From a bacterium (GTDB lineage Bacteria > Patescibacteriota > UBA1384 > CAILIB01): 64,000 nt of DNA. Where the stretch lies: NCBI GenBank assembly GCA_037131105.1, contig JBAXRQ010000002.1, forward strand, positions 94,100 through 158,099, written 5' to 3'. Positions 46,168 through 64,000 of the stretch are shown one piece after another; within the stretch, counting starts at the first letter, position 1; the number at the start of each line of letters is the position of its first letter. The translations under genes were made by a program, and so were the position numbers. The notes under the pieces were generated by a model that was not told the origin of the DNA, did not search any database, and worked only from the letters and a program-made list of their open reading frames with translations.

Positions 46168-46170
46168 AAG

Positions 46171-46200: not shown

Positions 46201-46209
46201 CTTTGTGCT

Positions 46210-46365
46210 TCGCGATAGGGATTCGAGTCCCGCTTTGACCTGCTGGAGCAGGTCGGAATGTTCGCGGAAGCGAGTGACCGAATCCCTATCTTCCATGGAG
46301 TGGTGATTGCTTACTCGGTCAAGGAGTGGAGAAGGCCCGGCCGCCATCCCTATCTCTTCCTTATG
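46210..46365. repeat. Three partial copies of the tRNA-Ser 3' end (one inverted, two direct), att-site-like remnants.
   Basis: GCGATAGGGATTCGAGTCCCGC (inverted copy of GGGTTCGAATCCCTATC), CCGAATCCCTATCTTCC and CATCCCTATCTCTTCC (direct copies of CGAATCCCTATCTCTCC). Confidence 0.55.
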
Positions 46366-46431
46366 TCCCCTACCTTACATAATTCCGACACATTGCTGCT
46401 ACACTTAGGTCAAACATCCTAACCACCCCCT

Positions 46432-48241: not shown

Positions 48242-48413
48242 GGTTTCATTATACCTTCTTGGAGCTATCTATTGCACCATTGCATTTTTTGGGAAACAGG
48301 TGTACAGTTAAGCAGTCTTTTAGAGACGTGTCTCCGTCTTGCTGGGTCGAGGGTAGGTAGGAAGACAGAATCGTAGAAACAAGTGTAATTCGTTTGAACT
48401 AAATTTTTCCCAT

Positions 48414-48692
48414 ATGTCCAAGAAGCTATACGTTGGTGGTCTTCCTTATTCCACCACCACTGAGGAACTAGAGGCTGCATTCGCCCCTTTCGGTACCGTT
48501 GAAGAGGCTATCATCATCTCCGACCGTGAGACCGGCCGCAGCAAGGGTTTTGGTTTCGTTACCATCACCGAAGACAAGGGTGCTGACGACGCTATCGAAG
48601 CTATGAACGGCAAGGACTTCAATGGTCGTCCTCTTACCGTCAATGAGGCTCGTCCTAAGGAGGCTGCTCCTGCTTACCGCTCTGAGCGCTAA
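48414..48692 (+). CDS. RRM-type RNA-binding protein.
   Basis: RNP-2 (LYVGGL) and RNP-1 (KGFGFVTI) motifs. 92 aa. Confidence 0.85.
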   Translation: MSKKLYVGGLPYSTTTEELEAAFAPFGTVEEAIIISDRETGRSKGFGFVTITEDKGADDAIEAMNGKDFNGRPLTVNEARPKEAAPAYRSER

Positions 48693-48711
48693 TCAGTTTT
48701 CAGCTTTAGGA

Positions 48712-48745
48712 TAAGAAAGGGACCCCCTAGGGGGTCCCTTTCTTT
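48712..48745. terminator. Intrinsic terminator after the RRM gene.
   Basis: AAAGGGACCCCC-TA-GGGGGTCCCTTTCTTT. Confidence 0.7.
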
Positions 48746-48778
48746 GCCATATCCTCCCCTTCTCCCACAAAAATGAAT

Positions 48779-48990
48779 GATCTTCGCTGGTGTGGGCCCA
48801 CACGGCGGAGAACGCTCAGATCCTAAGACCGCCTTCCGAGGCAGCGTCGCTTCCGGGCTAACAGTTAAGGAATCGTCCTCCCTGCCACATCTACAATGTG
48901 GAAGATCTTCGCTGGTATGAGATTCATACGGCGGAGGCCGCTCAGATCCTAGGACCGCCTTCCGGCGGTCCGTCGCTCCCGAAGCGGCGT
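48779..48990. repeat. Two tandem ~100-nt structured repeats (candidate small RNAs) between the convergent RRM and pilB genes.
   Basis: Unit A GATCTTCGCTGG-GTGTGGGCCCACAC-GGCGGAGAACGCTCAGATCCTAAGACCGCCTTCCG… and unit B GATCTTCGCTGG-GTATGAGATTCATAC-GGCGGAGGCCGCTCAGATCCTAGGACCGCCTTCCGGCGGTCC…. Flanks are conserved while the hairpin stem covaries (GTGTGGG/CCCACAC versus GTATGAG/TTCATAC). Each unit also carries a tiny ATG…RRRxLRS* ORF (17-18 aa) whose hairpin-encoded residues are not conserved. Confidence 0.55.
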
Positions 48991-50510
48991 TAGGCCGAGG
49001 TAACTCGATAGATCTCTGACTCGGTGGTCATCCCCCGCTTTACCTTGTCCAGGCCGTCATTAAGCATGGAGACCATACCGCCACGCTCGGCGATCTGTTC
49101 CAGGCCTCCCTGGTCACGGTGCTGCATGACCGCTTGCTCGAACTCAGTGTTGGGGCAGAGTACTTCGCCGATGACTATGCGGCCGGAGTACTCTGGTTTC
49201 TCAGCGGTGGTTCCCGGTACCAGTTTGCGCACCAAGCGTTGGGCGACGACCATCTGGATACTGCCGGCCAGCAGGAACGGCTCGATTCCCATCTCCAGGA
49301 AACGGGTATGGGCAGTGACTGCGTTGTTGGTGTGCAGGGTGGAAAGCACCAGGTGGCCGGTAAGGCTGGCATTCAGGGCGATGGTGGCGGTCTCAGGGTC
49401 CCGAATTTCACCGATCATGACAATGTCAGGGTCCTGACGCATGGCCCCACGCAATCCTTCCGCAAAGGTGAAGCCGTGCTCGCTGTCGATCTGGCTCTGT
49501 TGCAATCCAGGTAGGCGGTACTCGATAGGATCCTCCAGGGTAATAATCTTCTTCTCGGGCGAGTTCAGTACTTTGAGCAGTGCGTACAAGGTAGTGGACT
49601 TTCCTGATCCGGTAGGTCCCGTCACAATGATTAGCCCGTAAGGCTTCTTGATGATCCTATTGATGAGTCCCTGGTTATATTCTGAGAATCCCAGCTCCTG
49701 GATGGTAAGGGTCTGCATGTCCTGGCGCAGTATTCTCATGACGATCCCCTCTCCGTAGCCAGTCGGGATGGTGGCGACGCGCAGGTCGGCGTTGATGCCT
49801 TTGTCTTGGAGGCCGAAGCGACCGTCCTGGGTGTTGCTCTTGTCGTCCAACTTCATCTTTGACTGGACCTTGATGCGGGAGACTAGGCCGTGATGCTGGG
49901 CCATGGGAAGCTCCAGAACCTTCTGTAGTACGCCATCTATGCGGAAGCGGATCTCCAGGACCTTCTCGCTAGGCTCGAGGTGGATATCCGAGGCCTGGGC
50001 ATTGAAGGCAGCGGCTAGAATAACATCTAGTAGTTCTGTCGTACTGGCCTTACCCGCCTGTTCGCGCAGGTCGTCCAGGGTACGGATGTTGTGGAAGTAG
50101 TCTTTTTTCTGCTCCTCGGTGCGGTTCCGGGAGAACTGAGCCTCTTCTTCCACCCGCTCATTACGGAGTTTCTGATAGGCGTCTATGAGCACATTCATAC
50201 TGGTTGCCGAGACTACGGTGAGCTCCAGGTCCTTATGCCAGTCATTCGCAAGGGCTATCAACTCCTTGTGGATCTCCTCATCGTCAGGGCGTTCTACCGC
50301 CATATGTACCTTGGTAGATGACCGCACGTAGGCGGCGTAGCGGCGCTTGGTAACCGTTTCTATAGGGACAAGCTCCAATACGTCCAGGTTAAAGGGGAAG
50401 TCGTCCAGCTGGGTAGTGGTCATTCCCATGTTGGCGGCCATGGCGGCGGCCTGGTGCTCTTCCTTCTCGCGCTGGAACTGCCTGAGTGAGACGTCTAATG
50501 AGGCGGGCAT
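48990..50510 (-). CDS. PilB/GspE-family secretion ATPase (type IV pilus / T2SS-like assembly ATPase; VirB11 superfamily).
   Basis: Walker A (IIVTGPTGSGKSTTLYALL), Asp box, Walker B and His box. ~506 aa with an N-terminal GspE_N-like domain. Confidence 0.85.
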   Translation of the reverse strand: MPASLDVSLRQFQREKEEHQAAAMAANMGMTTTQLDDFPFNLDVLELVPIETVTKRRYAAYVRSSTKVHMAVERPDDEEIHKELIALANDWHKDLELTVVSATSMNVLIDAYQKLRNERVEEEAQFSRNRTEEQKKDYFHNIRTLDDLREQAGKASTTELLDVILAAAFNAQASDIHLEPSEKVLEIRFRIDGVLQKVLELPMAQHHGLVSRIKVQSKMKLDDKSNTQDGRFGLQDKGINADLRVATIPTGYGEGIVMRILRQDMQTLTIQELGFSEYNQGLINRIIKKPYGLIIVTGPTGSGKSTTLYALLKVLNSPEKKIITLEDPIEYRLPGLQQSQIDSEHGFTFAEGLRGAMRQDPDIVMIGEIRDPETATIALNASLTGHLVLSTLHTNNAVTAHTRFLEMGIEPFLLAGSIQMVVAQRLVRKLVPGTTAEKPEYSGRIVIGEVLCPNTEFEQAVMQHRDQGGLEQIAERGGMVSMLNDGLDKVKRGMTTESEIYRVTSA

Positions 50511-50526
50511 AGAGGTGATTTAGTAG

Positions 50527-53500
50527 TTACCAGCGGACATGTATGCGGTCCCAGAAACTTGAATCGGGGAAGAATCCGGCGCGGTAGTCTGTGATTGGCG
50601 TGTAATACTTGTACCCGTTCTTTTCCTGGACGGCATTGGTATTTGCCCTATCGGTAAGAGCGCCATACCCGTAGCTTCCATCCTGCTGCCATGGGGCTGG
50701 TTCTGACAGATATCCTTCCAAGGAACCCAGATCGCCTGCCGGATGACTAAATACTTGGGATACCCAGAGGGAATTCGGGTGGGTCTGTGAGATGCCTGCC
50801 CATTTCTCTGGCATCTGCAACAGGTCAAGTAGTACGCTGTGGACGTTCTGCTGGGCTACTGCCTTGACTCCGGCGGCGTAGGTCACGGGATTCTTGGCGT
50901 CGAAGTCACTCTGGGGAAGATTATTGGCAGCCAGGCTTGCTCCAGCATTGGGCGGATTCGGAGCGCCAAGCGGCCAGTAGCCGTCTCCGGTAGCTCTCTG
51001 CACAACCACTACCTTATATACTCCGAACAAGTTGACCAGGATGAACTGCAGCAGCATTACCGGTGCCAGGGCGGGGCAGATGAAGAGATCGACTATGGCA
51101 CCCACCAGGAGATCCAGGCTGCCCGGTACCAGTCCCAGGGAAGTTTCCAGGCTGCGCAGCTGGTCGCCGAATACCGTGGTGATGGCTAGGGTGATAAGGA
51201 AAGCGGCGGCATTATCCTTAGCGCCCTGGCTGGCGTTGGTGGTAAGGGTATGGACTGCCTTGTAGACGTTGTAGAGCTTCTGGGCGGTACCCGGTTTGAA
51301 GCCGAACATCTTGTCACCGAAGGCGAACAGCTTCTGCTGACCTATCTGGGTAAGCAGGTTTGACATGCTAGGCACGGGCTTGCCATCCTTTCCGAGCTTG
51401 CCGCTGCCGTTATGGAACACGTCGGAACTGAAACCGCTGGAAGCCCAGCCGGCGAAGGCCTGCATAAACTGGGGGGTATTCTGGGCGCCGATAAGCTCGT
51501 TCAGCTTGGCAGTCACAAAGCCCCCCACCTTGGCCATGATGGCGTCAATGGCGGCCTGTTTCAGTCCATCCGCATAGGCAGAGGCGTTCTTAAAGCCGTT
51601 GGCGGCGAAGTCCTTCAGGGTGGCTATGTCGGCGGCGGTGAGGGCGCTTCCCAGGGCTCCTGCCAGGGCAGAGTTGATACCGTACTGGGCCAGCATGGTC
51701 ATTCTCTCGGCATCGGTACCGTGGGTAAGTGTCTCAATGAAGCCTGCCGGGATGTTCTTGTCCACCGAGAACAGCAGGGTGTCATAGATGGCGTTCTGCA
51801 TCTGGGACTTTACGTCCTGGATGAGGCTCTTCTGGAAGTCCTTCTTACCGATCTCCTTGATAGCGTTGAGCTCAGGCCCGATACCGGGGTCGTTCAGACA
51901 GTTGTCCAAAGAGCCGCAGGGGGCATTGGGGTACTTATCCTTGAAATAGCTGTTCAGGGCGTCCTTGCCTGCCGCCTCGACAACCGCCGTCGATAGGCTG
52001 AAGTCCTTCAGACTGTCTCTGAGGTTCTGGTATTGCAGGATAAAGTCGTCAATACGGTCGGCAACCCCCTCAAGCTTGCCTAGACCCTTGTTAAGGGTGC
52101 CGATGAGTTCCTGGACGGCAATGTCGGTAAGGCTGCTGACGTCGCCAGAAAGGATGGCCTGCAGGTCGACATGGCCTATGAGCCCCGGTAGGTTTCCTCC
52201 CCCCAGCTTGGCAATCTCGGCATTGATCATGCTGTTCAGGCTGTCCTGGAGAAGATCGCGGGCAGCAGTCTTATTGAAATCGAGTGAACAGCTTTGGGAG
52301 CCAAAGGTAATGTCGCAGTTGGCCGAGAGGAAGGCATTGCGGAAGCTGGCGGTGAACCCGTCGATGTCAGCTTGGTCAGCAACATTGAATATCTTGCTGG
52401 CTAGCTTCTGCATGCCGATGGTAAGCGCGATCTCTGGTGCCTGGGACGGGTTTAGTACCAGATCGGTAATGGTACCTGCAGGTAGCTGCAGCTTTGACTC
52501 CATGTCAGCGCTCCAAGTCTGGGCAAGACCTAGGTAGAGTGCCTGACCGTTGATGTTGCTGAAGGCGTTTGAAAGAGACCCAAAGCCTCCGGCCGGAGCA
52601 TGGCACGATCTCAGGCTGCTGCTCCCCACGAGGTAACCGTACAGGTCGCATCCTGTGGCATTCTGGATGGCGGCAAGGAGGGCTTGGGCGCTGGCCGGCG
52701 CCCCATTGGCATTAAGATTGGCCTGGGTTTGGGCTAGCTGGTGCTGGGTGGACGGAGTATACAGGACGTCGGCGGTGATCTGGCCGGTAATAAAGCTCTT
52801 AAGAGAGTCACCAGGAGTGGCCCCCAGCCCGTAGAGGCCGTTCAGCTGGCTGGTCCGCGACTGCAATCCGGCAATCTGGTTAGCATAGTCATCGTCATTG
52901 ACCGAGTATTCGGACTTTGTGTTGTTGACTAGATCACTAATGGCTACGTAGCCGCCGTCATTGGTCAGATCATGCAACAAGGTGTCGAAGGAGTCCTTAT
53001 CTTTCTTGACCAGCGGATTGGTAATGATGCTATTTGGTGAAGTCTGCCAGTAGGGCGAATTCGAGTCACTGATCTGGGAAATGACATCCTTACGTGTCTT
53101 AGCAATATAATTGGTCAGGATCCGGTCAGCCTTAGGGTCTGCCTGGGACGGATCGATACTTACCCGAGAGCTGATTCCGCTAAGGATCTTCAGGGCCGCC
53201 TGTACAGAGGGTGGGTCCTGAAGGCCTAGGCTGGTAAGAATGGCGCCGGGATCATTAAGATCGACTACCTGCTTGAAGTCTCCTTTGAAGCTGTTGGCGA
53301 CCAGTCCGAGGCCCTGGCTGAGAAGAGAGTTTCCGAAGTTCTGGTTAAAGGTGCCTGGAGTGGTGATGTCAAAGCCGGCTGGGAAGCCCAGGTCGCTGGC
53401 TACCGCCTGTATCCCCATCTGGCCCATGAAGGCAAAGCGTGCCCCGCTTGCCTCGGCAGCCGTACAGGTCTGAGGACTGTCGGCTGTACCACAGATGGGA

Positions 53501-56500
53501 TCAGCCAGGTTGATAGCGGTGCCGCTCTTCCAGTCCATCCGTTCATCGATAAGCTTCCCTCCGATCTTGGTGAGAAGATTCTGGCTCTGTCCGGTGAAAA
53601 GGCTGACTAGGTCGTTTGTAGAAACCTTGTAGCGTTCGTCATAGCTACTGTTTCCTGAAATGAGGTTGGTAAGTAGCTGCTGGGAGCGCTCGGTTATTGT
53701 TTTGGCACCGAAGGATAGGGCGTCTTCATCATTGATAGGTTGACTCTTCTGAGAAGCGTCAGCACGACCCACGGACATCTCCAGGCCAGCAAGGCTACTG
53801 TTGCCGCTTGTGAGCCAGCCAGTCAGGCTGCCGCTAGGAAGGTTGAGTGACTGGGTGAGCTGACAGTCTGCGGTATGCTCTGAGAAGTTGGTCAGCTGGC
53901 TGTCCAAGGCGTTAGCACGTACGGGGTCCGAAGCATCGCTGGTCTGACGTCCTGAAAGAATGGCCTGCTTCAGGGTGTCAGCGGCGCTGCAGGATCCGCT
54001 GCCATAGGTGTTGCCTGTGGACAGGGATGCCTGAGGGGCTAGAGAGCTTTGGCTATTGCCGTCCTGGGGAGTGTCCAGGCCCCGACCCACGATTGCTTCC
54101 TGAATGACGTGTGCGGCCTTCATGACGTCCTGGCGGCCTGACTCGTTGGCCGGGGCTGAGTTCAGGATGGCTGACTCGATATCGACTATTGCCTTCCTAA
54201 CTGCTTCCACTCCGTTCGGAGCCGACTTGTCCTTGAAGGTAGACAACGCTGGAGTGGCTCCGGCAAGTCCTCCCGAAGAAATCAGGTTACTTACCAGCCC
54301 CTGAAGTTGAGAATAACGGGCGTAATAGAAATCATCCCCACTTGGATCCGCGACGTCAGGGGGCGTCGAGCTCCCTGATCCAGACTGGGCCTGGAGCTGG
54401 TCTGGGCGCAAAGGCAGGTCGGTGCGTCCCCAGACTCCCTTGAGCAGTTCAACGGTACCTATTCGGTCAAATACCTGACTAGCTTCCTTACGGTAGAAGA
54501 TACGGTCCATGTCGGCAGAATCCAGCAGGCCGTTGGTACTGAGGAGGGTGCTGACTCCCGTAGAAGTGAAGTCGCCTTGGTAGGGGGTGCCGTCACCGTT
54601 AACCTCGTTAAAGAGCTGGTGCTGGGCCACTTTGTCGGTCGTGAGGGCGTGAGTGGCAACCTGCTGGCCGATAGTCTTCAGGATGCCGAGGCCGCCTTTC
54701 AGAAGCGTGGCGACGGGATCTCCGCTTCCTGGCTGGACACTGCTGATCTGACCCTGGGGAGTAAAGGTTACCGAAGTGCTGGTCAAATTCAGGCTGGCGC
54801 CCATGCCTCCCTGTCCGATCTTGTCGAAGTATCCCAGTACGCCGTCATCCAGCTGGTGTAGTTGGGAGATGATGGCGCTCAAAGCGTTCTGGGCCTGCTT
54901 GGTACTGGTACTTGATACGTATCCCTCGGTGGAGGCACCTGTGGTAGACAACTGGGAAAGACGCTGCTGGGCGGCTTGGAACTGGGTGAGCCACCCTGAT
55001 GACCAGTTGGAAGGTGTAGGGTCGTTGACTGTGTTGAAGGTGTTCTTCAGAACGGTGATCCTATCGGCCTGGGTCTGGGTGGGCGGCAGATGATAGGTAT
55101 TGCTCCAGACTACATTCTTGATTTGGGGAACAAGGGTATCTGCCTGGGCCTGGGTGAAAGCGCCGGCTCTGACCAGAGCCGTAATGTTAGGATCCCCTGC
55201 TGGGGCCTCCGGAGGTACGACCAGAGGCTTTCCAGGGACTATGACAGTCGTGAGTGGAGGAATAGTGGTAGTACCGGAGGTAGTGAGAAGGCTGTAGAGG
55301 TTGTTCTGGTTACAAATGTCCAGAGGGTTGCTCTCCTTGAACTGCGACAGAACAGTAGTGCAGTCGAGGCCGTTTGCGGCGATAGAGGTAACTCCAACAA
55401 GGGGAAATGGTACGCCGGCGAAGGTTCCGGTCCGGGTAACTGTTTCGGTCTGGTCGGCAGCCGTAGCGGTAGTAGTGAAGCTACCGATGTCCCCTTGAAT
55501 GGTGCGAGTACCTACTAGGTTGAAATAATCACTCAGTGACTTCTGTCCTCCGATCAGTTTGGCGGTGGGCCGGTCAAAGTCAGCCTGGGCGGTGGGCACC
55601 CCGAAGCTCGGTGTGCTAGTACCGGGTGATATATAAGTGAGGTAGAGGTCCTTGTCGAGCTGGTCGGCATTGGTGTTGGAGAAAATGGCCTTAGCAGCCG
55701 GTCCGGCGGCGAGAAGCTGGCTGAAGTCCGATACTCGCAGGCTTTGAGGGGGCAGATTATAGAGCTCCTCGATCCGCCCTATGCCGATGGCCTTGGCAAT
55801 ATCGGCAGCGCTCTGGAGAGAGAAGCCAGTGCTTGGGCTGAGGGTACCGGGGGTTACATGGAAGACATTCTCCTCAAGATAGCGGCTTCCTATCGATGTC
55901 TGTATGGCGGCCGGAGTACTACCTTGTACGGAATCGGCGGGTAGGTTCAGCATTTGCTCCAGGGTGGACTGGCCGACATTCTGGGTTATGGTCCCCCCTT
56001 TGTTGACGAGGGCATTGGGGAGTAGGCCGAGCTGCTGGCTTAGGTAGGCTCGTCCGAAGTTGTCCAGTGTGGAGGAAAGGTCAGAGCCCTTTAGTCCCCC
56101 GGTTGGCCCTCCTATCAGCTGACTTAATAACGAGGCGCCGGTCTGTTTGACCAAGTCCCCGATATTATTCATCGTGATGCCGGAGATATTGACGCTCGTC
56201 TGCAGGTCGAGGTTGGCCAGGAAGGTATCGAAGCCTCCCTTGAATGCGTTCAGTGCTCCCTGGTAGACAGTGCTGATATTCGGCAGGCCGCCAGACTGGG
56301 AGATGCCCTCGTCAGTCTGCCAGGCTACCTTGGTGGGGAACTGGGTGTACTGATAACTTACCTTGTCTCTTCCTATTCGTTTCTTCTCGGTGATCTTGGT
56401 GGTGACCCGGATGTTATCGATAGCGTCGATATCAAGGGCCTTGGCCAGGCAGGTGCTTCCGTGCGGCGGGTTTACATCATAATAATGGGCCGAGAAGATA

Positions 56501-57474
56501 CCACCATTACATTCATTGCGTGGTGCTGTTGAGTCGTCATTGGCAGTGAACTCCTTGTTCACCCCACCGGTCTGTAAAATCTGCCCTACGTCGATAAGCT
56601 CATGTCCTGCCCCTCCTTCAGAGGTAGGAGTGACCAGGTAGGTGAGGGTCCTCAGGATGCGGACGTCGGCCTTCGGGGCGTCCCAGCAGTTGTTTACCCA
56701 GGCTACGTCGTCGTAGTAGAGGGGTTTCCAGGCCTTTATGTCCAGGGAGCAGCCCGGGTCACTTTGTTGCTGGGTGTTTCCGTCAGAGTCCTTTATGGCG
56801 ACTCCCTTATCATCTATCTTGACCTTGGTCTCATCGCAGGCATTGCCATCCAGCTTCCGGCACGGCTCGCCTACCAGACCATAATAGTCGAGTGGGTTTT
56901 TGAAGGTTATCTTATTGGTAGGGAGAGTTGCGGCAGTCAGGACGCTCTCGGTGAGGCCACTGATGCCAAGTGGAGAAAGGAGGCGGCTAGCATCCTGATT
57001 ACAGACCCACCACCCCCCATCGTCTGCTGCGCCGACTCGGGCGATTTGGCTTTCGGTATCGGGAGGATAGGTCGGGCCGATATCATCCTTGGTGACGAAG
57101 GTCATTCCCCCATCTGGATCCTCGCTATATTTTAAGTAATCCTGGTACGAGAGCTGGTCGTTCTCATCCAGGACACTAGCACTGTCCGGGCTGCCAGTAT
57201 CATTAAGGCCGCTGATATCGTCAGGGCTTAGCTTACTGTACTCGGTATTTCCGTCGACGTAGTTTGGATCGGCGCTAGCGATGCCCTGGCCAATGGCGTT
57301 GCAGCGCTGCGAGAGCTCGGATTTGGTAAATGCGGTAGAGGTCGGGGCGGCCTGCACGGCAGCTGTCGGCATGGCTGCGGAGAGGAGAGGAACGTACACC
57401 ATTGTCTGGGCCATGACAATGATCAGGGTGGTCTTCGTTCCGCGACGAAATTGAGAGAAGAAAGAGGCCATCAT
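50527..57474 (-). CDS. Giant (2315 aa) secreted/surface protein with an N-terminal signal peptide, long Ser/Thr/Gly/Asn/Gln-rich low-complexity body, and C-terminal hydrophobic (TM) segments.
   Basis: Uninterrupted 6.9-kb ORF. N-terminus MMASFFSQFRRGTKTTLIIVMAQTMVYVPLLSAAMPTAAVQA is signal-like. C-terminal …AAAFLITLAITTVFG…LLVGAIVDLFICPALAPVMLLQFILVNLFGVY… are TM helices. No enzymatic motif recognised. Confidence 0.7.
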   Translation of the reverse strand: MMASFFSQFRRGTKTTLIIVMAQTMVYVPLLSAAMPTAAVQAAPTSTAFTKSELSQRCNAIGQGIASADPNYVDGNTEYSKLSPDDISGLNDTGSPDSASVLDENDQLSYQDYLKYSEDPDGGMTFVTKDDIGPTYPPDTESQIARVGAADDGGWWVCNQDASRLLSPLGISGLTESVLTAATLPTNKITFKNPLDYYGLVGEPCRKLDGNACDETKVKIDDKGVAIKDSDGNTQQQSDPGCSLDIKAWKPLYYDDVAWVNNCWDAPKADVRILRTLTYLVTPTSEGGAGHELIDVGQILQTGGVNKEFTANDDSTAPRNECNGGIFSAHYYDVNPPHGSTCLAKALDIDAIDNIRVTTKITEKKRIGRDKVSYQYTQFPTKVAWQTDEGISQSGGLPNISTVYQGALNAFKGGFDTFLANLDLQTSVNISGITMNNIGDLVKQTGASLLSQLIGGPTGGLKGSDLSSTLDNFGRAYLSQQLGLLPNALVNKGGTITQNVGQSTLEQMLNLPADSVQGSTPAAIQTSIGSRYLEENVFHVTPGTLSPSTGFSLQSAADIAKAIGIGRIEELYNLPPQSLRVSDFSQLLAAGPAAKAIFSNTNADQLDKDLYLTYISPGTSTPSFGVPTAQADFDRPTAKLIGGQKSLSDYFNLVGTRTIQGDIGSFTTTATAADQTETVTRTGTFAGVPFPLVGVTSIAANGLDCTTVLSQFKESNPLDICNQNNLYSLLTTSGTTTIPPLTTVIVPGKPLVVPPEAPAGDPNITALVRAGAFTQAQADTLVPQIKNVVWSNTYHLPPTQTQADRITVLKNTFNTVNDPTPSNWSSGWLTQFQAAQQRLSQLSTTGASTEGYVSSTSTKQAQNALSAIISQLHQLDDGVLGYFDKIGQGGMGASLNLTSTSVTFTPQGQISSVQPGSGDPVATLLKGGLGILKTIGQQVATHALTTDKVAQHQLFNEVNGDGTPYQGDFTSTGVSTLLSTNGLLDSADMDRIFYRKEASQVFDRIGTVELLKGVWGRTDLPLRPDQLQAQSGSGSSTPPDVADPSGDDFYYARYSQLQGLVSNLISSGGLAGATPALSTFKDKSAPNGVEAVRKAIVDIESAILNSAPANESGRQDVMKAAHVIQEAIVGRGLDTPQDGNSQSSLAPQASLSTGNTYGSGSCSAADTLKQAILSGRQTSDASDPVRANALDSQLTNFSEHTADCQLTQSLNLPSGSLTGWLTSGNSSLAGLEMSVGRADASQKSQPINDEDALSFGAKTITERSQQLLTNLISGNSSYDERYKVSTNDLVSLFTGQSQNLLTKIGGKLIDERMDWKSGTAINLADPICGTADSPQTCTAAEASGARFAFMGQMGIQAVASDLGFPAGFDITTPGTFNQNFGNSLLSQGLGLVANSFKGDFKQVVDLNDPGAILTSLGLQDPPSVQAALKILSGISSRVSIDPSQADPKADRILTNYIAKTRKDVISQISDSNSPYWQTSPNSIITNPLVKKDKDSFDTLLHDLTNDGGYVAISDLVNNTKSEYSVNDDDYANQIAGLQSRTSQLNGLYGLGATPGDSLKSFITGQITADVLYTPSTQHQLAQTQANLNANGAPASAQALLAAIQNATGCDLYGYLVGSSSLRSCHAPAGGFGSLSNAFSNINGQALYLGLAQTWSADMESKLQLPAGTITDLVLNPSQAPEIALTIGMQKLASKIFNVADQADIDGFTASFRNAFLSANCDITFGSQSCSLDFNKTAARDLLQDSLNSMINAEIAKLGGGNLPGLIGHVDLQAILSGDVSSLTDIAVQELIGTLNKGLGKLEGVADRIDDFILQYQNLRDSLKDFSLSTAVVEAAGKDALNSYFKDKYPNAPCGSLDNCLNDPGIGPELNAIKEIGKKDFQKSLIQDVKSQMQNAIYDTLLFSVDKNIPAGFIETLTHGTDAERMTMLAQYGINSALAGALGSALTAADIATLKDFAANGFKNASAYADGLKQAAIDAIMAKVGGFVTAKLNELIGAQNTPQFMQAFAGWASSGFSSDVFHNGSGKLGKDGKPVPSMSNLLTQIGQQKLFAFGDKMFGFKPGTAQKLYNVYKAVHTLTTNASQGAKDNAAAFLITLAITTVFGDQLRSLETSLGLVPGSLDLLVGAIVDLFICPALAPVMLLQFILVNLFGVYKVVVVQRATGDGYWPLGAPNPPNAGASLAANNLPQSDFDAKNPVTYAAGVKAVAQQNVHSVLLDLLQMPEKWAGISQTHPNSLWVSQVFSHPAGDLGSLEGYLSEPAPWQQDGSYGYGALTDRANTNAVQEKNGYKYYTPITDYRAGFFPDSSFWDRIHVRW

Positions 57475-58547: not shown

Positions 58548-58575
58548 GGTCCCCTCCCTTAGCTTGTTTGGTGTG

Positions 58576-59883
58576 CTATAAGGCTAATCCAACGGTATAC
58601 AGTGAACTATCGGTGTAGAATATCAGCGTCTTGCTTGTTCCGAAATAGAACATGCCCTTGATCGATAGCTGGGTCGGGAAGGCAAATACCACTTCCTTGC
58701 TGGTGCCGTCGATGCCATATGAGGTAATGGCGTTACTGTTCTGACTGGGGAGGTAAAAGCCGCTACTACCCTTCCAGGCTGCTTGGGCGACCTTGCCTGC
58801 CACATTCAGCTGTTTCTGCCCACTCCCATCCGGCTTCATGGTACCGAGAACGCTGATTCCTGCCGACTGACTCTCATAGAGAATTATACCACTGTCGGGA
58901 GAGAAAGAGGCATCGAGGATGGAGCCGCCAGTCGTCAGCTGCTTCAGGGTGCCATCCGCCGTGGTGTACACCCAAAGATTCTCAAGTCCTGGGTCGCTGG
59001 AACGAGCTACTAGAAGTATATAGGCGTCATTGGGAGACCAAATCAGTTTAGGATTGGGAATGGCACTGAGGTCTGCCTTGCGGTCCATCTTGGTAAGGCG
59101 CTTATCGCTAAATACCAATGAGCGCTCGCCCCCGGCGGTAAAGTAGGCGAAGGCCAACCGCTCGGGGTTCAGGGGGTCCCAGATGGGTGAGATTATCTCG
59201 GGGCCGCCCAGTTTGACCAGGGTTTGGGTAGTAAAGTTAAACGTAGGAATTTCTCTAAGGTAGACCCCGTCAGCTTCGGTGATGAGGGCGACATCAGGCT
59301 GACTTGACCACTGGACATCACTTACTCCATGCAGATTAGTGGTAGTGAGCGGCACACGGATCTGGCTGCTGATGTTCATTCGGTAAATGGTCTTGCGGTT
59401 GTCTCCCAGGTAGAAGACTGATTTTTCGTCAACAGAAGGCCTCACGTAGTCGACGGTGGCCACCTCTGACTGCTTGCTGGTGGGCTGGAAGGCGTAGGCC
59501 GGACGTACCTGGAGACTCTGCCCCCTGCCCAGTAGGATGTCCTGCACAAAGGGAAGGTAGTGGGTCTTGGCGATCTGCAGCCGGTAGCTCCCAGCGAATA
59601 CGGTGATCTCGTAGCCCTTGTTGGTGAGCTTGGTTGGTGCCTTCTGGCCGTTCAGGGTAATGGTGATATCCTTGCTGGTGTCGAGAATGAGAATGGTACT
59701 GCGACCGCTGGTATACAGGTATAGCCCCAGTAATGACAGGATGAACGCGGCTATGACGGCCGTAATCCCCCAGCTGCGTAGCTTCTTGCGGCGGATATCC
59801 TTAGTAAAAGGACTTGAAGATACAGGGGGTACCTTGCCCGTACTGGGCTTGTTGGGTGCGATAATAGGTGGCGGTGTCTCCAC
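58576..59883 (-). CDS. Bitopic membrane protein with a TolB-like (PD40/WD40-like) beta-propeller ectodomain.
   Basis: N-terminal TM (ITAVIAAFILSLLGLYLY). Repeated …WSP(N/D)…Y…… / …SFSPDSGIILYES… blocks typical of PD40 blades. Confidence 0.5.
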   Translation of the reverse strand: METPPPIIAPNKPSTGKVPPVSSSPFTKDIRRKKLRSWGITAVIAAFILSLLGLYLYTSGRSTILILDTSKDITITLNGQKAPTKLTNKGYEITVFAGSYRLQIAKTHYLPFVQDILLGRGQSLQVRPAYAFQPTSKQSEVATVDYVRPSVDEKSVFYLGDNRKTIYRMNISSQIRVPLTTTNLHGVSDVQWSSQPDVALITEADGVYLREIPTFNFTTQTLVKLGGPEIISPIWDPLNPERLAFAYFTAGGERSLVFSDKRLTKMDRKADLSAIPNPKLIWSPNDAYILLVARSSDPGLENLWVYTTADGTLKQLTTGGSILDASFSPDSGIILYESQSAGISVLGTMKPDGSGQKQLNVAGKVAQAAWKGSSGFYLPSQNSNAITSYGIDGTSKEVVFAFPTQLSIKGMFYFGTSKTLIFYTDSSLYTVGLAL

Positions 59884-59886
59884 GGG

Positions 59887-60393
59887 CTACTTTTTCGGAA
59901 CTGCAGGGGCGGCCGGCTTCGGAGTAGGTGCGGCCACTGGGAAGGCGCTGCCTTGGAGAGTAACGCTATTGGCTATCTGGTGCAGGATAAAGCTGACCGA
60001 GGCGAAGACTATGCCGCCTATGACTATTCCGATGATCCGCTGCTTAGCCTTCTTGGACTGCTCTGGTGAGACGCCTCCGAACATATACTGGACGCCAGAA
60101 AAGGCGATGGCGATGACTGCCACGAACAGAACCAGTGGAGAGATCTGCCTAATGATCTGGTCCATATACTGTGGGAAGGTGGTATTGTTCGTACAGCCAC
60201 TGACCAGGACCCCCTGGAAGCAGGGCTGGGAGGTGGGCTGGGGCGGTAGAAGGGATCCGACCGGACCCCCCACAACAGGAGTAGTCCCAGCAGCATAGAC
60301 ATGGGTCACACTTAATACGGCCAAAGCGTAGAATGAAGCGGCAAGTCCTACGAGGCGGGAGGCAGATCTATGGGTCATAGACTCATGATACAC
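59887..60393 (-). CDS. Small membrane protein with VirB2/TrbC-pilin-like architecture (signal peptide plus two hydrophobic helices).
   Basis: 168 aa. Signal-like N-terminus; two hydrophobic segments (ISPLVLFVAVIAIAFSGVQYMFGG … IIGIVIGGIVFASVSFIL) separated by a short polar loop; Pro/Ala-rich C-terminal tail. Architecture only, no sequence-level proof. Confidence 0.4.
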   Translation of the reverse strand: MYHESMTHRSASRLVGLAASFYALAVLSVTHVYAAGTTPVVGGPVGSLLPPQPTSQPCFQGVLVSGCTNNTTFPQYMDQIIRQISPLVLFVAVIAIAFSGVQYMFGGVSPEQSKKAKQRIIGIVIGGIVFASVSFILHQIANSVTLQGSAFPVAAPTPKPAAPAVPKK

Positions 60394-60418
60394 CTACGCC
60401 CCGACTGCTGAACAGGCT

Positions 60419-61492
60419 TTAGAGCGAAAGCGTGTAGAGTGTTGCATTGGTGAGAATCAAGACGCTGTCACCAAAGGGTAGTATCTGGTCTATGTTCTGA
60501 ATATAGGGCCCGTCAACTGAGTGGGTTGAAGTAACGGACCCACCTTCTGAAAGACTAACCATGATTACCTCGTCTCCGGCAGGAGAGGCTGCCACTAGTA
60601 GCTGGGAACCCACCCATGCCTGGGTCTGTCCGCACGCAGTAGTAGTATCGGTTACCTTGGAAGAGTACAGGCTAATCACTGATGCTGAATCAACTTGATG
60701 CTGAAATGCCAGGGTGCCTTCTGCTGACCACCCGATGAGGCCGGTAATAGCGGCGGCCACGTTTTTTTTGACAGTGCCGTTGGCCTCGATAATGGTGAGG
60801 CTGCTCTGGTCTCCGTCAGAGGATTGGTCGCTCACCATGAGGGCAATTCGCCCGTCTTTTTGTGAAATGACCATCTGATCAACCTGTCCTGTAATCTTGG
60901 AAAGGTTGAGGTTTCCTCCTCCCGGAGTCAGTGCGATTAGTTGGGTTGTGGCGCCATCCACGCTGCCCACTGCGTACACTACCTGCCCACTCATGCTCCA
61001 GGCACCTGAGGAGCCCGGAATGTCAGTAAGGGTGCCACTGGCGGCATTGAGAAGCTTCAGTGTCTTGGAATCGTCATCACTTTCGCCGGCGTATGAAAGC
61101 AGGGCGGTCTTTGAGTCTGGCGACCATTGGATCTGCCGGGGGGTAGGGTCAAGTGTGGTGATGGTGGTTACAGCCTTAGTTGCGGCTGAATATTCCTTGA
61201 GATTGCCGTCGCTGTCCAGATATCGAACCACTTGACCACCACTGACTGGGCTAGCCCGGTCTACGGTGTTGGCATCGACTGCTATGGCCACAGGAGTGGC
61301 AACCGGGAAGGGAGTTGGTACAACGCCGGGGGTACCTTGGCTGCTAGTAGCTGTCACGCCGGTATTCCCGGTTGATGTTGTGGCATGTCTCTTGGAAAAA
61401 TAGAGCGAAAGCAGGGCTCCTACTCCGAGTACAACAACCACGGCGGCGAGAATGAGGGTTGGCTTGGGGGTGCGTAGGTTCATGGTTACCAC
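60419..61492 (-). CDS. Second bitopic membrane protein with a TolB-like beta-propeller ectodomain.
   Basis: N-terminal TM (LILAAVVVVLGVGALLSLYF). Repeated …WSPDSKTALLSY…, …G(T/S)L(T/K)…, and …DG(R/A)…A(L/M)… blade-like blocks. Confidence 0.5.
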   Translation of the reverse strand: MVTMNLRTPKPTLILAAVVVVLGVGALLSLYFSKRHATTSTGNTGVTATSSQGTPGVVPTPFPVATPVAIAVDANTVDRASPVSGGQVVRYLDSDGNLKEYSAATKAVTTITTLDPTPRQIQWSPDSKTALLSYAGESDDDSKTLKLLNAASGTLTDIPGSSGAWSMSGQVVYAVGSVDGATTQLIALTPGGGNLNLSKITGQVDQMVISQKDGRIALMVSDQSSDGDQSSLTIIEANGTVKKNVAAAITGLIGWSAEGTLAFQHQVDSASVISLYSSKVTDTTTACGQTQAWVGSQLLVAASPAGDEVIMVSLSEGGSVTSTHSVDGPYIQNIDQILPFGDSVLILTNATLYTLSL

Positions 61493-63603
61493 TTACCGGT
61501 AGTACCGACTTTTGATTTAAGGGTCGCACAGGTCTGCTCTTCTCCAGCGTTATTGATGCCCAGCGGACCAAGCACAGCGTGCATGAAGGGAATGCCTGGA
61601 TCGGTACGGTGGAACTTCTGTTCTGCACCGGTCTGAATCACCCTACAGTCGGCGATCATGTGAGAGATGACGTCACCTGAAGGGATGCCGTATTTCTGCT
61701 GGAGGTACTTGACTAGCTTGGTGTTTGAAGCCACCTGTGCCGAGGTGAAGTTATGGCCCGCCCTTCCGTTTTCGAAGTCGCCCTCATTTTCCACCGATAT
61801 GGTGACTCCTCCGTTGGCCACGTTGTAGTGAGAGACACCCGCGGTTTGTTTTGTCTCTGGTAAGAACTGGTAGATGGTACCGTCCTTACCTACTACGAAC
61901 TGGACATATTTTTGTCCGTCGCCAGAAACTTTCATCGAGTTGTTGAACTGATCCCAGGCCTGCTGGACGGTCTCGTCAGGGTCTGTACTGTGGTCGCCGT
62001 AGGTGGAAAGGTAATGCAGAGCGATCACCTTAGGCATGGCGTAGTTGTGGTTGATGTTGGGATTTGTCTCTGTAGCGGCAGTGAGTGGCTTCTGGGTGCA
62101 GAACGTACAGATGCCCTTGTCTGCAGGTATGGACGTAACCAGTCCGGTCGATCCGGTTGAGGGAGGCCCAGTCAGTGCTACTGGACCGAGAGGCGTGTTT
62201 TGGTCTTTGACGATGGCGACAGTAACCCGGTTGTCGTTATCCTTGGGGGTTCTGTCAGCGTTAATGCCGTCCTGTTTGTCGTAACCCTTGCCGGGATTAG
62301 TCAGTCCGAGGGCATAGAATACCTCTGTAGTGGCACCGGCGCCGATCCCGTTTCGGCGTACTACATAGGAGTTAGGTCCGCAGTCGTCGATGCTGACGAC
62401 TACGCTCTTGTGGGTCTCTACGCTGGTAACCAGGAGCTTCTTTTTCCCCCAGGCATGACTGTAACCTCCATGACAGCCATCCAAATTCTTGTCGTATGCC
62501 CAGGGCTCGTTGAATAACCAGCGTTCCTGTTCAGGTGTCATCTTGCCAAAGGAGGCGCCCTGCCCACGATTCTTGGTATCGGTAGTGGGGTAGATCTTGC
62601 CAGAGTCTACTCCGGCATAATGGGTGCCAGTGATCATTTTATCCGCCATATGACTCTCATGTCCTAACTTGGTATCTGGAAATGGGAGGACCAGGCCGTC
62701 CAGGCTGGCTACTGTCTCTACGTTCGCAGTACCGTTAACACCCACAGCAGTGGGTGTGTCGCCGAAGGCTATGGAGGAGAGGGAGATAATCAGAACCACT
62801 ACAAGGATAATAATAAACAACACAGAGCTGATTGCTATTATCAGGATATCCCTCCTATGCTTGACTGCCCATTTTGTAGCTATTTCTCCTGCAACACCTG
62901 TTCCTGTGGCTGCCCCCACAGCCTTGGCGCCGGCATCTACTGCCATGTCCTTTACCTGGGATTTAGCATTTCCCCCTGTTGTCGCATGGGCTAGGGGGTT
63001 GCTGCTGAGGCTACTTGAGGAGGCAGCCGCAGACCCGGCCAGGCTTGCGGTAGTCCCAGACTTTTCACCCGCAGCTTTTCCAGCCACAGATGCAGCTCCG
63101 CCTCCGGCTTTTCCGGTCTGATTGGCCGGATTGGCGGTGAGCTGATATCCACCACTGCCGCCGGTGGTAATGTTGGCTTTGGGCTGGGGGCCGCCGCTTA
63201 GGTTGCCTGGGCCGGGCAGGGCGGCTCCAGCAGGAGAGACGTTCTGAGCGGCCACGGCATCAGGTGCTACGCCGGCCTCAGTCCGGCGTATGCTTTGAGG
63301 GTTCGCAATGGTCTGGTCAGGTCCCAGGCTCTGGTTATAGTAGGCAGTTGGATTAGGGGTTGTCCCACTGGTCTGGGTGGTCTCAGGAGCCTGGGCAGAG
63401 CCACTAGTCGCGGTGGTATCGGCGGGAGTACTGGAGGTAGAAGCTGTAGTCTCAGTGGTCCGAGGAGCCTCTCCCCCCTGGCTCTGGGTGACTGGTTCAG
63501 TGAAACTAGGCTCGGCAAGCTCCTGCTCACCAAGCTCCTGCTCGGACTCCTCGTCTAAGAGCCCGGCTAGCTCTTCCCCAGTGTCGACCTCTTCTACAGG
63601 CAT
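61486..63603 (-). CDS. T4SS-associated cell-wall hydrolase: disordered acidic/Ser-Thr-rich N-terminus, single TM, RlpA/3D-type double-psi beta-barrel (lytic transglycosylase-like) domain and a C-terminal Amidase_2 (PGRP-type N-acetylmuramoyl-L-alanine amidase) domain.
   Basis: TM ILIIAISSVLFIIILVVVLIISL. …GYSHAWGKKKLLVTSVETHKSVVVSIDDCGP… resembles the DPBB of RlpA/3D domains (…VvVrvnDrGP). …AGVSHYNVANGGVTISVENEGDF…HMIADCRVIQTGAEQKFHRTDPG resembles Amidase_2 (sYHy…iGIE…H.d…k.CPG). Confidence 0.6.
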   Translation of the reverse strand: MPVEEVDTGEELAGLLDEESEQELGEQELAEPSFTEPVTQSQGGEAPRTTETTASTSSTPADTTATSGSAQAPETTQTSGTTPNPTAYYNQSLGPDQTIANPQSIRRTEAGVAPDAVAAQNVSPAGAALPGPGNLSGGPQPKANITTGGSGGYQLTANPANQTGKAGGGAASVAGKAAGEKSGTTASLAGSAAASSSSLSSNPLAHATTGGNAKSQVKDMAVDAGAKAVGAATGTGVAGEIATKWAVKHRRDILIIAISSVLFIIILVVVLIISLSSIAFGDTPTAVGVNGTANVETVASLDGLVLPFPDTKLGHESHMADKMITGTHYAGVDSGKIYPTTDTKNRGQGASFGKMTPEQERWLFNEPWAYDKNLDGCHGGYSHAWGKKKLLVTSVETHKSVVVSIDDCGPNSYVVRRNGIGAGATTEVFYALGLTNPGKGYDKQDGINADRTPKDNDNRVTVAIVKDQNTPLGPVALTGPPSTGSTGLVTSIPADKGICTFCTQKPLTAATETNPNINHNYAMPKVIALHYLSTYGDHSTDPDETVQQAWDQFNNSMKVSGDGQKYVQFVVGKDGTIYQFLPETKQTAGVSHYNVANGGVTISVENEGDFENGRAGHNFTSAQVASNTKLVKYLQQKYGIPSGDVISHMIADCRVIQTGAEQKFHRTDPGIPFMHAVLGPLGINNAGEEQTCATLKSKVGTTGKW

Positions 63604-63612
63604 GCTTCGTGC

Positions 63613-64000
63613 TTAATTACCGCCGCCGCGCATGGCGAGCAGCTGCTTTGGATCGGTGGTAATGATCTGGTCTTCAGTGTAGGAGGCAGTAATCTTGATA
63701 GCTACGTGGTTCAGTCCGGCGAAGAAGAGGCCTTCCCCTACCGCTGCATTGAGCAGCAGATACTTTTCCTGTTCGGTCAGGTTGAATACGTTCGAGATCA
63801 CGTCAATGGATGAGGTGGACTGCTTCAGGAGTACCTGCATCGATGAGTTCGACACCACCGCCTTTCCGTACTTATTGGAGAGGAAGTCCTCAACGTCCTG
63901 GGAGATGATGGTAAGACCGAGGAAATACTTACGGGCGCGCTTGGCTAGACCGTACAGGAAGCGGGCCGAGTCCTCGTACTGCATCATCCACCAGGCTTCA
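63613..64000 (-). CDS. VirB4/TrbE/CagE-family conjugation (T4SS) ATPase, C-terminal fragment. The gene continues beyond the right edge of the window.
   Basis: ARKYFLGLTIISQDVEDFLSNKYGKAVVSNSSMQVLLKQ matches the VirB4 C-terminal block (ARKYg.s..laTQs..Dfl.s…ai.eNs.tki.L.q), followed by …LTEQEKYLLLNAAVGEGLF…. The reading frame is open to position 64000. Confidence 0.7.
   Translation of the reverse strand, partial: EAWWMMQYEDSARFLYGLAKRARKYFLGLTIISQDVEDFLSNKYGKAVVSNSSMQVLLKQSTSSIDVISNVFNLTEQEKYLLLNAAVGEGLFFAGLNHVAIKITASYTEDQIITTDPKQLLAMRGGGN

Follow-up and report, generated by a model that had tools for sequence, protein, structure and literature searches.

A probable type IV secretion operon beside the chromosomal origin of a Patescibacteria genome, with genes for a giant predicted envelope protein and a terminal zinc-less PilB-like ATPase

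We analyzed a 64,000-nucleotide stretch of a bacterial contig (JBAXRQ010000002.1, positions 94,100 to 158,099, assembly GCA_037131105.1; this whole stretch is hereafter called the window), in which a cluster of eight genes between positions 48990 and 64000 had been proposed, from the sequence alone, to encode a hybrid pilus and secretion machine. The results indicate, with a probability that we put at roughly 0.8, that this cluster makes up the downstream four-fifths of an operon of ten genes, chromosomal and oriC-adjacent, for the monoderm, MPF_FATA-related type IV secretion system (T4SS) of Patescibacteria (the Candidate Phyla Radiation (CPR)). The core of the system is not new, as it has already been published (PMC10633639, PMC12102498). 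T4SSs of Patescibacteria are essential for epibiotic growth and bear pilins despite the monoderm envelope, and the question at stake is how a monoderm CPR T4SS, lacking both VirB11 and an outer-membrane core, builds and uses a pilus. The locus, together with ten related loci, provides three candidates for the missing parts, namely a zinc-less PilB-like ATPase, a PEGA-PD40 scaffold and giant anchored proteins of one family that bear a peptidase-like motif. Should these be true members of the machine, they would offer testable handles on how ultra-small bacteria connect to their hosts; if they are not, the locus would be one more instance of a published system.

An open reading frame (ORF) check of the window confirmed that all eight genes lie on the minus strand and are transcribed from position 64000 towards 48990 (Table 1), as the initial annotation had described. 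The spacing between consecutive genes, from virB4 to the ATPase gene, is 9, -7, 25, 3, 28, -4 and 16 nt (negative values are overlaps), and every encoded protein that is not an ATPase is membrane-anchored according to a hydropathy scan. The DNA covered here comprises the window and a further 10 kb to its right (L001), which together amount to 74 kb of a 284-kb metagenomic contig, recorded as ena:ERZ27300165:k141_631109 with 283,763 bp. In this extension, the virB4 gene cut by the window edge is complete and, in the direction of transcription, is preceded by a TrsD-like gene and this in turn by a PrgI gene, beyond which lie a 436-nt gap and unrelated genes (DHH, S1, ComM-like Mg-chelatase and M48 peptidase). 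The operon is thus one of ten genes, from that for PrgI (first) to that for the PilB-like ATPase (last). The expectation that only half of the cluster was visible in the window was not borne out, as the extension adds only ∼2.7 kb to it, and neither VirD4 or VirB6, which had been anticipated beyond the edge, nor a relaxase is encoded in the next 6.4 kb upstream within the extension.

On its other side, the cluster is followed by genes for an RRM protein and a membrane spermidine-synthase-like protein, tRNA-Ser, yidC, rnpA, rpmH, an RHH/PIN pair, dnaA, dnaN and recF. The genes dnaA, dnaN, recF, rpmH, rnpA and yidC lie 3–10 kb downstream of the cluster, with dnaA 6.4 kb from the cluster end; within this origin region (window 38308–46167), recF, dnaN and dnaA are on the minus strand, and rpmH, rnpA and yidC are on the plus strand. 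Because the sign of the GC skew flips at ∼39–46 kb of the window and dnaA, dnaN and recF are neighbors, we place the cluster beside oriC. The remainder of the window holds housekeeping genes, including those for SecA, tRNA synthetases, FtsA, MreB, PBP2 and RNase J.

The proteins of the cytoplasmic-membrane engine identify the apparatus. The full VirB4 protein scored 361.9 bits on NF045971 (CD1110-type VirB4; cut-off 325), which confirms that the gene at the window edge encodes a genuine VirB4 rather than an FtsK/HerA-type ATPase, and the PrgI and TrsD-like proteins encoded just beyond the window add further T4SS components to the contig. The VirB4 alignment covers model positions 177–734 only, and the 297-aa protein encoded upstream of it matches positions 5–151 of the VirB4_CagE N-terminal model and carries PF26593 (TraC-like). 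Because VirB4 starts at model position 177 and the 297-aa protein fills the missing N-terminal positions, VirB4 is split, as the literature describes for the separate TrsD; the 297-aa protein also matches the TrsD model NF041427 at 6.8e-6, which is under the cut-off of that model. The first gene of the operon, which is outside the window, encodes a 151-aa PrgI/VirB3-like protein (PF12666, 33.5 bits; cut-off 27). VirB4 has thousands of relatives, the closest of which are 80–89% identical and named 'Patescibacteria group bacterium', and a relative with 68% identity comes from Candidatus Berkelbacteria. Judged by model score and by identity to Patescibacteria VirB4 proteins, this VirB4 is predicted to be MPF_FATA-related.

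The gene for the putative pilin lies 3.2 kb downstream of virB4, and its product exceeds the cut-offs of both PF18895 (T4SS_pilin; 35.3 bits against 26.6) and PF04956 (TrbC; 32 bits against 27.9). We know of no VirB2-like pilin in Gram-positive T4SSs. The gene call on record for this pilin has 128 aa and uses an internal GTG start 40 codons later, by which the signal peptide is lost; a start at the head of the 168-aa ORF, or at its Met6, is more plausible, as it would better fit a VirB2-type pilin. The predicted signal cleavage site is followed by 'VVGG', and processing by the neighboring C39-like peptidase is a possibility.

Two further products of the cluster are candidate wall hydrolases. 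The 705-aa bitopic protein matched Amidase_2 (N-acetylmuramoyl-L-alanine amidase) at 7.6e-15, its PHROG matches were amidases only, and its predicted function is VirB1-like wall cutting. Pfam found nothing in its middle domain. Of the DPBB and amidase domains initially assigned to this protein, only the amidase stood: the DPBB had no support from Pfam, PDB or PHROGs and was dropped, the segment '...LLVTSVETHKSVVVSIDDCGP...' being RlpA-like by eye only. The 358-aa bitopic protein was confirmed as C39-like (PF13529, 'C39-like' family, 1e-13, 52.5 bits; cut-off 24), with Cys189 (NWCAMTS) and His289 (TVHVVVV) as candidate catalytic residues. A word-seeded search of a 5.8-billion-protein database found only the protein itself, and a scan of genome contigs found nothing; this lack of homologs is attributed to fast evolution and makes the protein unfit as a synteny anchor. 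No ABC exporter was found in the cluster and no ABC domain in the protein, which is more likely a wall-active cysteine peptidase, by analogy with the CHAP domains of Gram-positive VirB1-like proteins, than a bacteriocin-processing enzyme.

The locus closely resembles the published Patescibacteria systems. In the Saccharibacterium Southlakia epibionticum, an essential T4SS (SEML1_0006–0019) lies next to dnaA, resembles Gram-positive conjugative systems and has pilins but no coupling or relaxase proteins (Wang et al. 2023, PMC10633639). The genes SEML1_0004–0019 encode PrgI, a TrsD-like protein, VirB4, a large Hedgehog/DD-peptidase protein, a lysozyme/cysteine-proteinase protein, a PEGA protein and pilins, and nearly all of them are essential, the NTF2-like SEML1_0012 being one that is not (PMC10633639). 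More widely, Patescibacteria VirB4 proteins form a monophyletic clade that is sister to MPF_FATA, with TrsD, PrgI and VirB2-like pilins encoded near virB4; relaxases are near absent, VirB6 and VirB8 are scarce (VirB6 scarce or absent in several classes), and the systems lie in proximity to dnaA, dnaN, rnpA and rpmH (Quiñonero-Coronel et al. 2025, PMC12102498). The window locus has all the traits from these two papers that we checked, except a detectable VirB6. It shares with the Southlakia and other Patescibacteria systems a chromosomal position by dnaA, dnaN and recF, the order PrgI, TrsD-like, VirB4, one or more VirB2-like pilins, the absence of a relaxase or type IV coupling protein (T4CP) nearby, wall hydrolases directly downstream of virB4 that include a cysteine-peptidase domain, and an exported PEGA-domain protein.

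The two loci also differ in several respects. Southlakia has an array of six pilins, as opposed to one here, and lysozyme-like domains in place of the Amidase_2 hydrolase; no VirB6/TrbL-like or NTF2/VirB8-like gene is recognizable in the present operon. Unlike in Southlakia, PEGA is here fused to a PD40 propeller, the 2315-aa protein takes the place of the 1113-aa SEML1_0007, and a zinc-less PilB-like ATPase gene closes the operon. The initial annotation considered the C39 and propeller proteins to be unusual additions to a T4SS; on the contrary, both have likely counterparts in Southlakia, in the cysteine-proteinase domain of SEML1_0006 and in the PEGA protein SEML1_0005. PilB, T2SSE, C39 and propeller proteins are not mentioned in the main text of PMC12102498, and T2SSE, C39, PD40 and Amidase_2 do not occur in those of its supplementary tables that were searched. 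The giant family, the terminal zinc-less PilB-like ATPase and the pilin-linked PEGA and PD40 protein are the parts of the locus not described in the Patescibacteria T4SS literature cited here.

The Gram-positive character assigned to the apparatus at the outset was upheld, as were the VirB2-like pilin and the wall hydrolases. In common with the MPF_FATA T4SSs of Firmicutes (CTn2/CD1110, pCF10 Prg/Pcf, pIP501 Tra and pGO1 Trs), the locus has a CD1110-family VirB4, PrgI, a TrsD-like protein as in pGO1, a membrane-anchored multi-domain wall hydrolase (VirB1-like; compare PrgK/TraG) and a monoderm architecture without VirB7, VirB9 and VirB10. In contrast to these systems, it lies outside any mobile element, neither a relaxase nor a T4CP, PrgH/VirB6 or PrgL/VirB8 was detected, and the VirB2-like pilin, PilB-like ATPase, propeller proteins and giant protein are features of the present locus.

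Ten further loci were compared with the window: five (L005/L088, L006, L007, L089 and L090) were obtained via VirB4 or giant-protein homologs, and five (L092–L096) independently, from a scan of JGI metagenomes with the conserved module of the giant protein (a 5-sequence alignment). In all 11 loci, the genes for PrgI, the TrsD-like protein and VirB4 are followed, in one direction, by 2–6 variable genes and then by the giant gene, whose product has 2250–3173 aa where complete. Because the same order recurs in ten other loci, it is not due to chance, and the genes are syntenic rather than scattered in relatives. The repertoire of variable genes consists of those for the pilin, the PEGA and PD40 protein, a C39-containing protein, an Amidase_2 or VanY hydrolase and a ∼350-aa protein encoded just upstream of the giant gene, and these accessory proteins diverge much faster than VirB4. 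The chromosomal position is likewise the same in lineages with VirB4 67–91% identical, and in Southlakia. In this connection, we observed that the 358-aa C39-like protein of the window appears to be a fusion or rearrangement, judging by sequence resemblance: the N-terminal half is similar to the 'pre-giant' protein (∼350 aa) of L090, and the C-terminal half to the C39 domain with which separate proteins of 664–692 aa end in L006 and L090 (620–690 aa across relatives).

The T4SS operon is transcribed towards the origin and would thus be head-on to replication. The same origin-facing orientation is seen in Southlakia (dnaA, dnaN and recF on the plus strand, SEML1_0004–0013 on the minus strand) and in two Berkelbacteria-like loci, L089 and L096; head-on orientation goes unmentioned in the published 'gene dosage' idea.

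We next consider the three candidate additions to the system, beginning with the giant protein. Searched whole and in six overlapping pieces, it had no Pfam match, and it had no NCBIfam or PDB sequence match either; its full-length homologs are 28–35% identical where VirB4 is 80–87% identical. A profile of residues 245–560, run against 1.84 billion representative proteins, nevertheless gathered 238 members (representative clusters), 118 of them below 1e-30. Nearly all members have 1400–3300 aa, with the module at about residues 200–600; among the long members, an N-terminal hydrophobic segment is present in 87 of 110 and a hydrophobic region ∼150–220 residues from the C-terminus in 90 of 110, and, rare exceptions aside, no hydrophobic segment lies between the termini. 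The description of the protein as low-complexity did not hold: its composition is biased, but only 20 of 2303 windows are of low entropy, and neither tandem repeats nor internal repeats detectable by BLAST are present. As a separate observation, the motif 'L.LP.GS[LI].G', which follows a helix-like 'G...L...', occurs in at least five copies (aa 509, 1210, 1389, 1662 and 2113), is conserved in the family and may stand for a helical unit that recurs along the protein but has diverged beyond what BLAST detects. The protein was also considered as an extended VirB6, and this was set aside on the grounds that it has a C-terminal hydrophobic hairpin only and not five or more transmembrane (TM) helices.

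The second motif of the family reads N[IV]SAHxxGQAVDISE[IV]D, and 70 of 112 members carry the exact [ST]xHxxGxAxD signature of LAS zinc peptidases (VanY/M15/Hedgehog); in the subclade of the window, a ∼10-residue insertion splits this signature, separating S-A-H from A-L-D. Pfam VanY matched one member of the family (E = 0.09, below significance), and a PDB profile search placed Sonic hedgehog N-domains on the motif, with 6n7g among the entries touched (E ∼ 0.9, also below significance). In Southlakia, the essential 1113-aa SEML1_0007, encoded just downstream of VirB4, has a Hedgehog/DD-peptidase domain by structure (ECOD e6n7gC1; PMC10633639); there the LAS-like motif lies near the C-terminus, whereas in the 2315-aa protein it lies near the N-terminus. 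Overall, the module is a probable but unproven divergent LAS-like (VanY/Hedgehog/M15-like) domain, and we treat the giant protein, on its predicted topology, as a membrane-anchored envelope component of the T4SS and not as a demonstrated adhesin.

Of the two proteins initially called TolB-like propellers, the 435-aa protein could be confirmed. It matched TIGR02800 at 9.4e-9 and TolB PDB chains at about 4e-6, although its TIGR02800 score was 34.7 bits against a cut-off of 343, with only the last blades aligned. Orthologs with 22–50% identity are present in all ten related loci, and several of them exceed the Pfam cut-offs for both PEGA and PD40; in the four loci in which a pilin was found (the window, L088, L006 and L090), the PEGA and PD40 gene stands directly after the pilin gene in every case. 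The C-terminal PD40 propeller aligns to that of TolB of the Tol-Pal system (E 4e-6 to 1e-8), but the protein lacks the TolB N-terminal domain and the Tol-Pal partners, is membrane-anchored, carries PEGA and comes from a monoderm organism; the similarity to TolB is at the domain level only. The 357-aa protein, in contrast, had no Pfam, NCBIfam or PDB sequence match. It is fast-evolving, without a clear ortholog in relatives, and its phmmer matches were to a 349-aa protein of L007 (2.8e-5) and to a propeller ortholog (1e-3). A single PD40-like blade, 'QIQWSPDSKTALL', was detected in it with an hhalign probability of 37%, and the protein may be a divergent propeller of the PD40 type.

The last gene of the operon encodes an ATPase with a full T2SSE domain (PF00437, 2e-112, 375.9 bits). 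Its scores are below the equivalog cut-offs of GspE (TIGR02533, 438.6 against 630.25), PilB (TIGR02538, 414 against 675.65) and ComGA (NF041000, 248.2 against 300), and are below those of the VirB11-type models (TIGR02788, 45.3 against 249.95; TrbB, 49.8 against 304.55). The assignment of a PilB-type ATPase with a GspE N-domain thus held for the ATPase domain, whereas the GspE/MshE-type N-domain was weakly detected (MshEN, E = 0.008). Within the same secretion-ATPase superfamily, T4SSs are represented by VirB11, on which T-pilus biogenesis in diderms depends; to our knowledge, VirB11 is absent from monoderm T4SSs. The present ATPase shares with PilB/GspE/ComGA and VirB11 the superfamily, Walker A and B and the His box, together with a weakly MshEN-like N-terminal extension, and it is far closer to PilB/GspE than to VirB11 (438 against 45 bits). 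It differs from PilB/GspE/ComGA in having no zinc module and no platform protein or prepilins nearby. An alignment revealed that ∼45 residues are deleted after 'AQRLVRKL' in the ATPase of the window and that those of L088, L090 and L093 share this deletion; no CxxC is present in any of the four, whereas the two CxxC of the zinc module are kept in the L089 homolog and in all six canonical PilB proteins compared.

Consistent with a link to the T4SS, ATPase orthologs with 55–65% identity are encoded by the terminal cluster gene in all four close relatives that could be assessed. In L088, the ATPase gene starts 17 nt after the giant gene, and in L093 the two overlap; in L090, the pilin and propeller genes are shifted downstream of the giant gene, and the ATPase gene follows the propeller gene. 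A scan of genome contigs with the PilB-like protein returned generic PilB/GspE proteins from many phyla at 35–47% identity and was of no use for synteny. We noted, in addition, that in L089 (10001–27443, compared with window 38308–57474) the yidC-rnpA-rpmH/dnaA-dnaN-recF block is inverted relative to the giant and PilB-like genes, an apparent origin-centered inversion that either separated the ATPase gene from the T4SS cluster or joined them.

Taken together, the parts suggest how the machine may work. VirB4 and PrgI, with the TrsD-like protein, would make up an engine in the cytoplasmic membrane that pulls out the pilin and builds a VirB2-type tube. Peptidoglycan at the contact site, whether of the cell itself or of its host, would be opened by the amidase, the cysteine peptidase and the giant protein's LAS-like module. 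The PEGA-propeller proteins could scaffold the channel through the wall zone and stand in for a VirB8-like scaffold and the VirB9/10 outer-membrane core, and the PilB-like hexameric ATPase might act as an extra motor, functionally analogous to VirB11. The cargo would be host-directed, protein or other, and not conjugative DNA. Given that neither a relaxase nor a coupling protein is encoded nearby and that the locus lies outside any mobile element, the most likely role of the machine is not conjugation but interaction with host cells, in which protein or other cargo would cross the epibiont-host junction; this matches the proposal made for the essential Southlakia epibionticum system. The episymbiotic role suggested in the initial annotation is plausible, given that the 80–89% VirB4 identity marks the organism as a Patescibacterium, and cryo-electron tomography of another Patescibacterium, Mycosynbacter, with its host has revealed a tube or conduit 8.6 nm wide and 61 nm long (PMC11880426).

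Several results weigh against parts of this interpretation. Pfam and NCBIfam searches matched no operon protein to TrbL/VirB6/PrgH, and the operon also lacked a detectable VirB8-like protein, while a Berkelbacteria relative has a TrbL-like gene upstream of its cluster; the channel components would then be either unrecognized in the operon or encoded elsewhere. VirD4 homologs lie far from virB4 in many genomes (PMC12102498), and a distant VirD4 or relaxase could be present here too. Promoter and terminator scans of the operon, the region upstream of PrgI and the region downstream of the ATPase gene were at or below shuffled expectation and are uninformative on transcript structure. The LAS-like assignment of the giant module is under significance in each single test; Foldseek found nothing for it, and no conserved His supplies a third zinc ligand (ExxH or HxH) downstream of the motif, the frequent His in GGAGH upstream not being invariant. 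The evidence that ties the ATPase functionally to the T4SS is gene linkage, and this linkage is not general: in the Berkelbacteria-like L089, the homolog is 39% identical, keeps the zinc motif and lies 7 kb away across the inverted dnaA-yidC block, and L096 has no ATPase gene within 2.4 kb of the giant gene. Finally, with 74 kb of the 284-kb contig covered, a separate type IV pilus (T4P) locus that needs this ATPase may lie elsewhere.

An alternative view is that the PilB-like ATPase is the motor of a T4P or competence pilus encoded elsewhere and is a mere neighbor of the T4SS, both being kept near oriC. The protein is a full-length PilB/GspE-type ATPase with GspE, PilB and ComGA as its best models, T4P machinery is nearly universal in Patescibacteria, where pilB is well conserved (PMC12206443), and the position of the Berkelbacteria homolog beside yidC, together with its retained zinc motif, suggests an ancestral oriC-region gene and not a T4SS gene. 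However, characterized CPR T4P loci keep pilB with pilC, pilM/N/O, pilT and pilins (PMC12206443), and no PilC/GspF, PilM/N/O, PilT or prepilin gene is present in the 64-kb window; the ATPase gene adjoins the T4SS in 4/4 close relatives despite gene shuffling, with gaps of 16–17 nt or overlaps that suggest co-transcription, and the T4SS-linked copies share the derived loss of the tetracysteine. We consider the neighbor explanation a serious possibility, somewhat short of even odds. The opposite proposal is that, in one Patescibacteria lineage, the T4SS has taken over the zinc-less PilB/GspE ATPase as a third motor of its own for assembling the VirB2-type tube, which would make this ATPase an independently evolved analogue of VirB11. 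Together with a giant anchored protein of the same apparatus, whose LAS-type module would cut the host wall at the contact site, the system would constitute a true hybrid of T4SS and type IV filament for epibiont-host junctions. Precedents for T4SSs with type-IV-filament parts are the IncI plasmid R64 (T4SS with thin type IV pilus) and the Sulfolobales Ced/Ups systems (via PMC12102498), but these carry a complete T4P gene set (pilins, platform, and secretin or equivalents), whereas the present locus has the ATPase only. The hybrid with a PilB motor, first suggested in the initial annotation, thus gains from the adjacency in close relatives and loses from its absence in the Berkelbacteria-like clade; it survives as a tentative proposal, and a doubtful one in this full form, in which a VirB11-analogous role of the ATPase is our inference.

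Other readings of the operon appear less likely still. The idea that a hybrid pilus or secretion machine displays the 2315-aa protein as a giant cell-contact adhesin draws on its signal/anchor, ∼2000 extracytoplasmic residues and C-terminal membrane anchor, on its presence in the cluster in 11/11 loci and on its fast evolution, which host-contact proteins often show; Gram-positive conjugation systems also use large surface adhesins such as PrgB. Yet Pfam found no adhesin domains or repeats (Ig, cadherin, LPXTG, collagen-binding and so on) in the segments of the giant protein or in five family members, internal repeats are lacking, and the only strongly conserved, recognizable module bears the peptidase-like SxHxxGxAxD motif and points to peptidoglycan. 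With a Sec signal and a membrane anchor, the protein need not be a T4SS substrate, and we regard its being 'presented' by the machine as an adhesin as unlikely. A reversed T4SS (compare Helicobacter ComB) that, with a ComGA/PilB-like ATPase, imports host DNA for nucleotides would suit CPR bacteria, which lack nucleotide synthesis. The operon has a comM-like Mg-chelatase gene 4.6 kb upstream of it, T4SS loci of class ABY1 co-localize with comF, recG and radA (PMC12102498), and the ATPase matches ComGA at 248 bits. That score is, however, under the cut-off of 300, no comEC, comEA or comF was found in the window, and in Southlakia the T4SS is essential and comEC is dispensable, which argues that the essential role is not via ComEC-dependent uptake (PMC10633639, PMC12857230); DNA uptake is accordingly quite improbable. 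Lastly, the VirB4 is of the CD1110/integrated conjugative element type, and conjugative elements of Firmicutes typically have PrgI, TrsD and a wall hydrolase, as would be expected of the transfer apparatus of such an element or of a plasmid. Against this, the cluster sits amid housekeeping genes by dnaA on the 284-kb contig, no relaxase, T4CP (VirD4) or integrase was found across the window and the adjoining 10 kb, GC content is uniform across the window, and the chromosomal site is shared across lineages and with Southlakia; on these grounds, a mobile-element origin was rejected as hardly credible.

Table 1. Features of the T4SS operon (window positions unless stated otherwise)
Feature	Position	Strand	Details
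VirB4 ATPase, C-terminus (128 codons)	63613..64000	-	PF19044 2.2e-10; NF045971; full gene 602 aa, runs past the window edge
Split virB4 region	L001 7293-9991, just right of the window		297-aa TrsD-like gene overlaps virB4 by 4 nt
Bitopic Amidase_2 protein, 705 aa	61486..63603	-	acidic Ser/Thr-rich N-region of ~250 aa; TM aa 249-287; middle domain; Amidase_2 aa 524-653
Bitopic protein, 357 aa	60419..61492	-	N-terminal TM aa 8-35; divergent PD40-type propeller possible
VirB2/TrbC-like T4SS pilin, 168 aa	59887..60393	-	signal-peptide-like N-terminus; hydrophobic helices aa 78-109 and 118-142
PEGA and TolB-like PD40 propeller protein, 435 aa, bitopic	58576..59883	-	TM aa 35-60; PEGA-like domain; C-terminal PD40 beta-propeller
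Bitopic C39-like protein, 358 aa	57471..58547	-	N-terminal TM and helical region; Peptidase_C39_2 (papain-fold cysteine peptidase) aa 173-308
Giant predicted envelope protein, 2315 aa	50527..57474	-	N-terminal signal/anchor aa 15-36; long extracytoplasmic region; C-terminal hydrophobic hairpin aa 2113-2159; conserved 155-aa tail
Conserved module of the giant protein, aa 250-410	56245..56727	-	D.R.L.TL.YLVTP..GGAG and S-A-H ... A-L-D-I-D-A-I-D
PilB/GspE-family (T2SSE) ATPase, 506 aa, last cluster gene	48990..50510	-	Walker A aa 298; Walker B region aa 360; His box aa 389
Tetracysteine zinc module deletion in the ATPase	aa 423-441, 49164-49244	-	alignment

Some other genes of the window were noted in passing. 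A 638–649-aa protein without a Pfam match is encoded at 16499–18448 on the minus strand, which corresponds to 3521–5437 of L091, and a 596-aa protein, likewise without a Pfam match, is encoded at 24974–26764 on the plus strand, directly after the FtsA-like gene. Between rpmH and dnaA lie an AAA_33 kinase-like gene (43180–43707, plus strand) and the RHH antitoxin/PIN toxin pair (43710–44343, minus strand). Between the T4SS cluster and yidC, the gene at 46751–48241 on the minus strand encodes a 496-aa protein in which a multi-span hydrophobic N-terminal half is fused to a spermidine-synthase-like domain.

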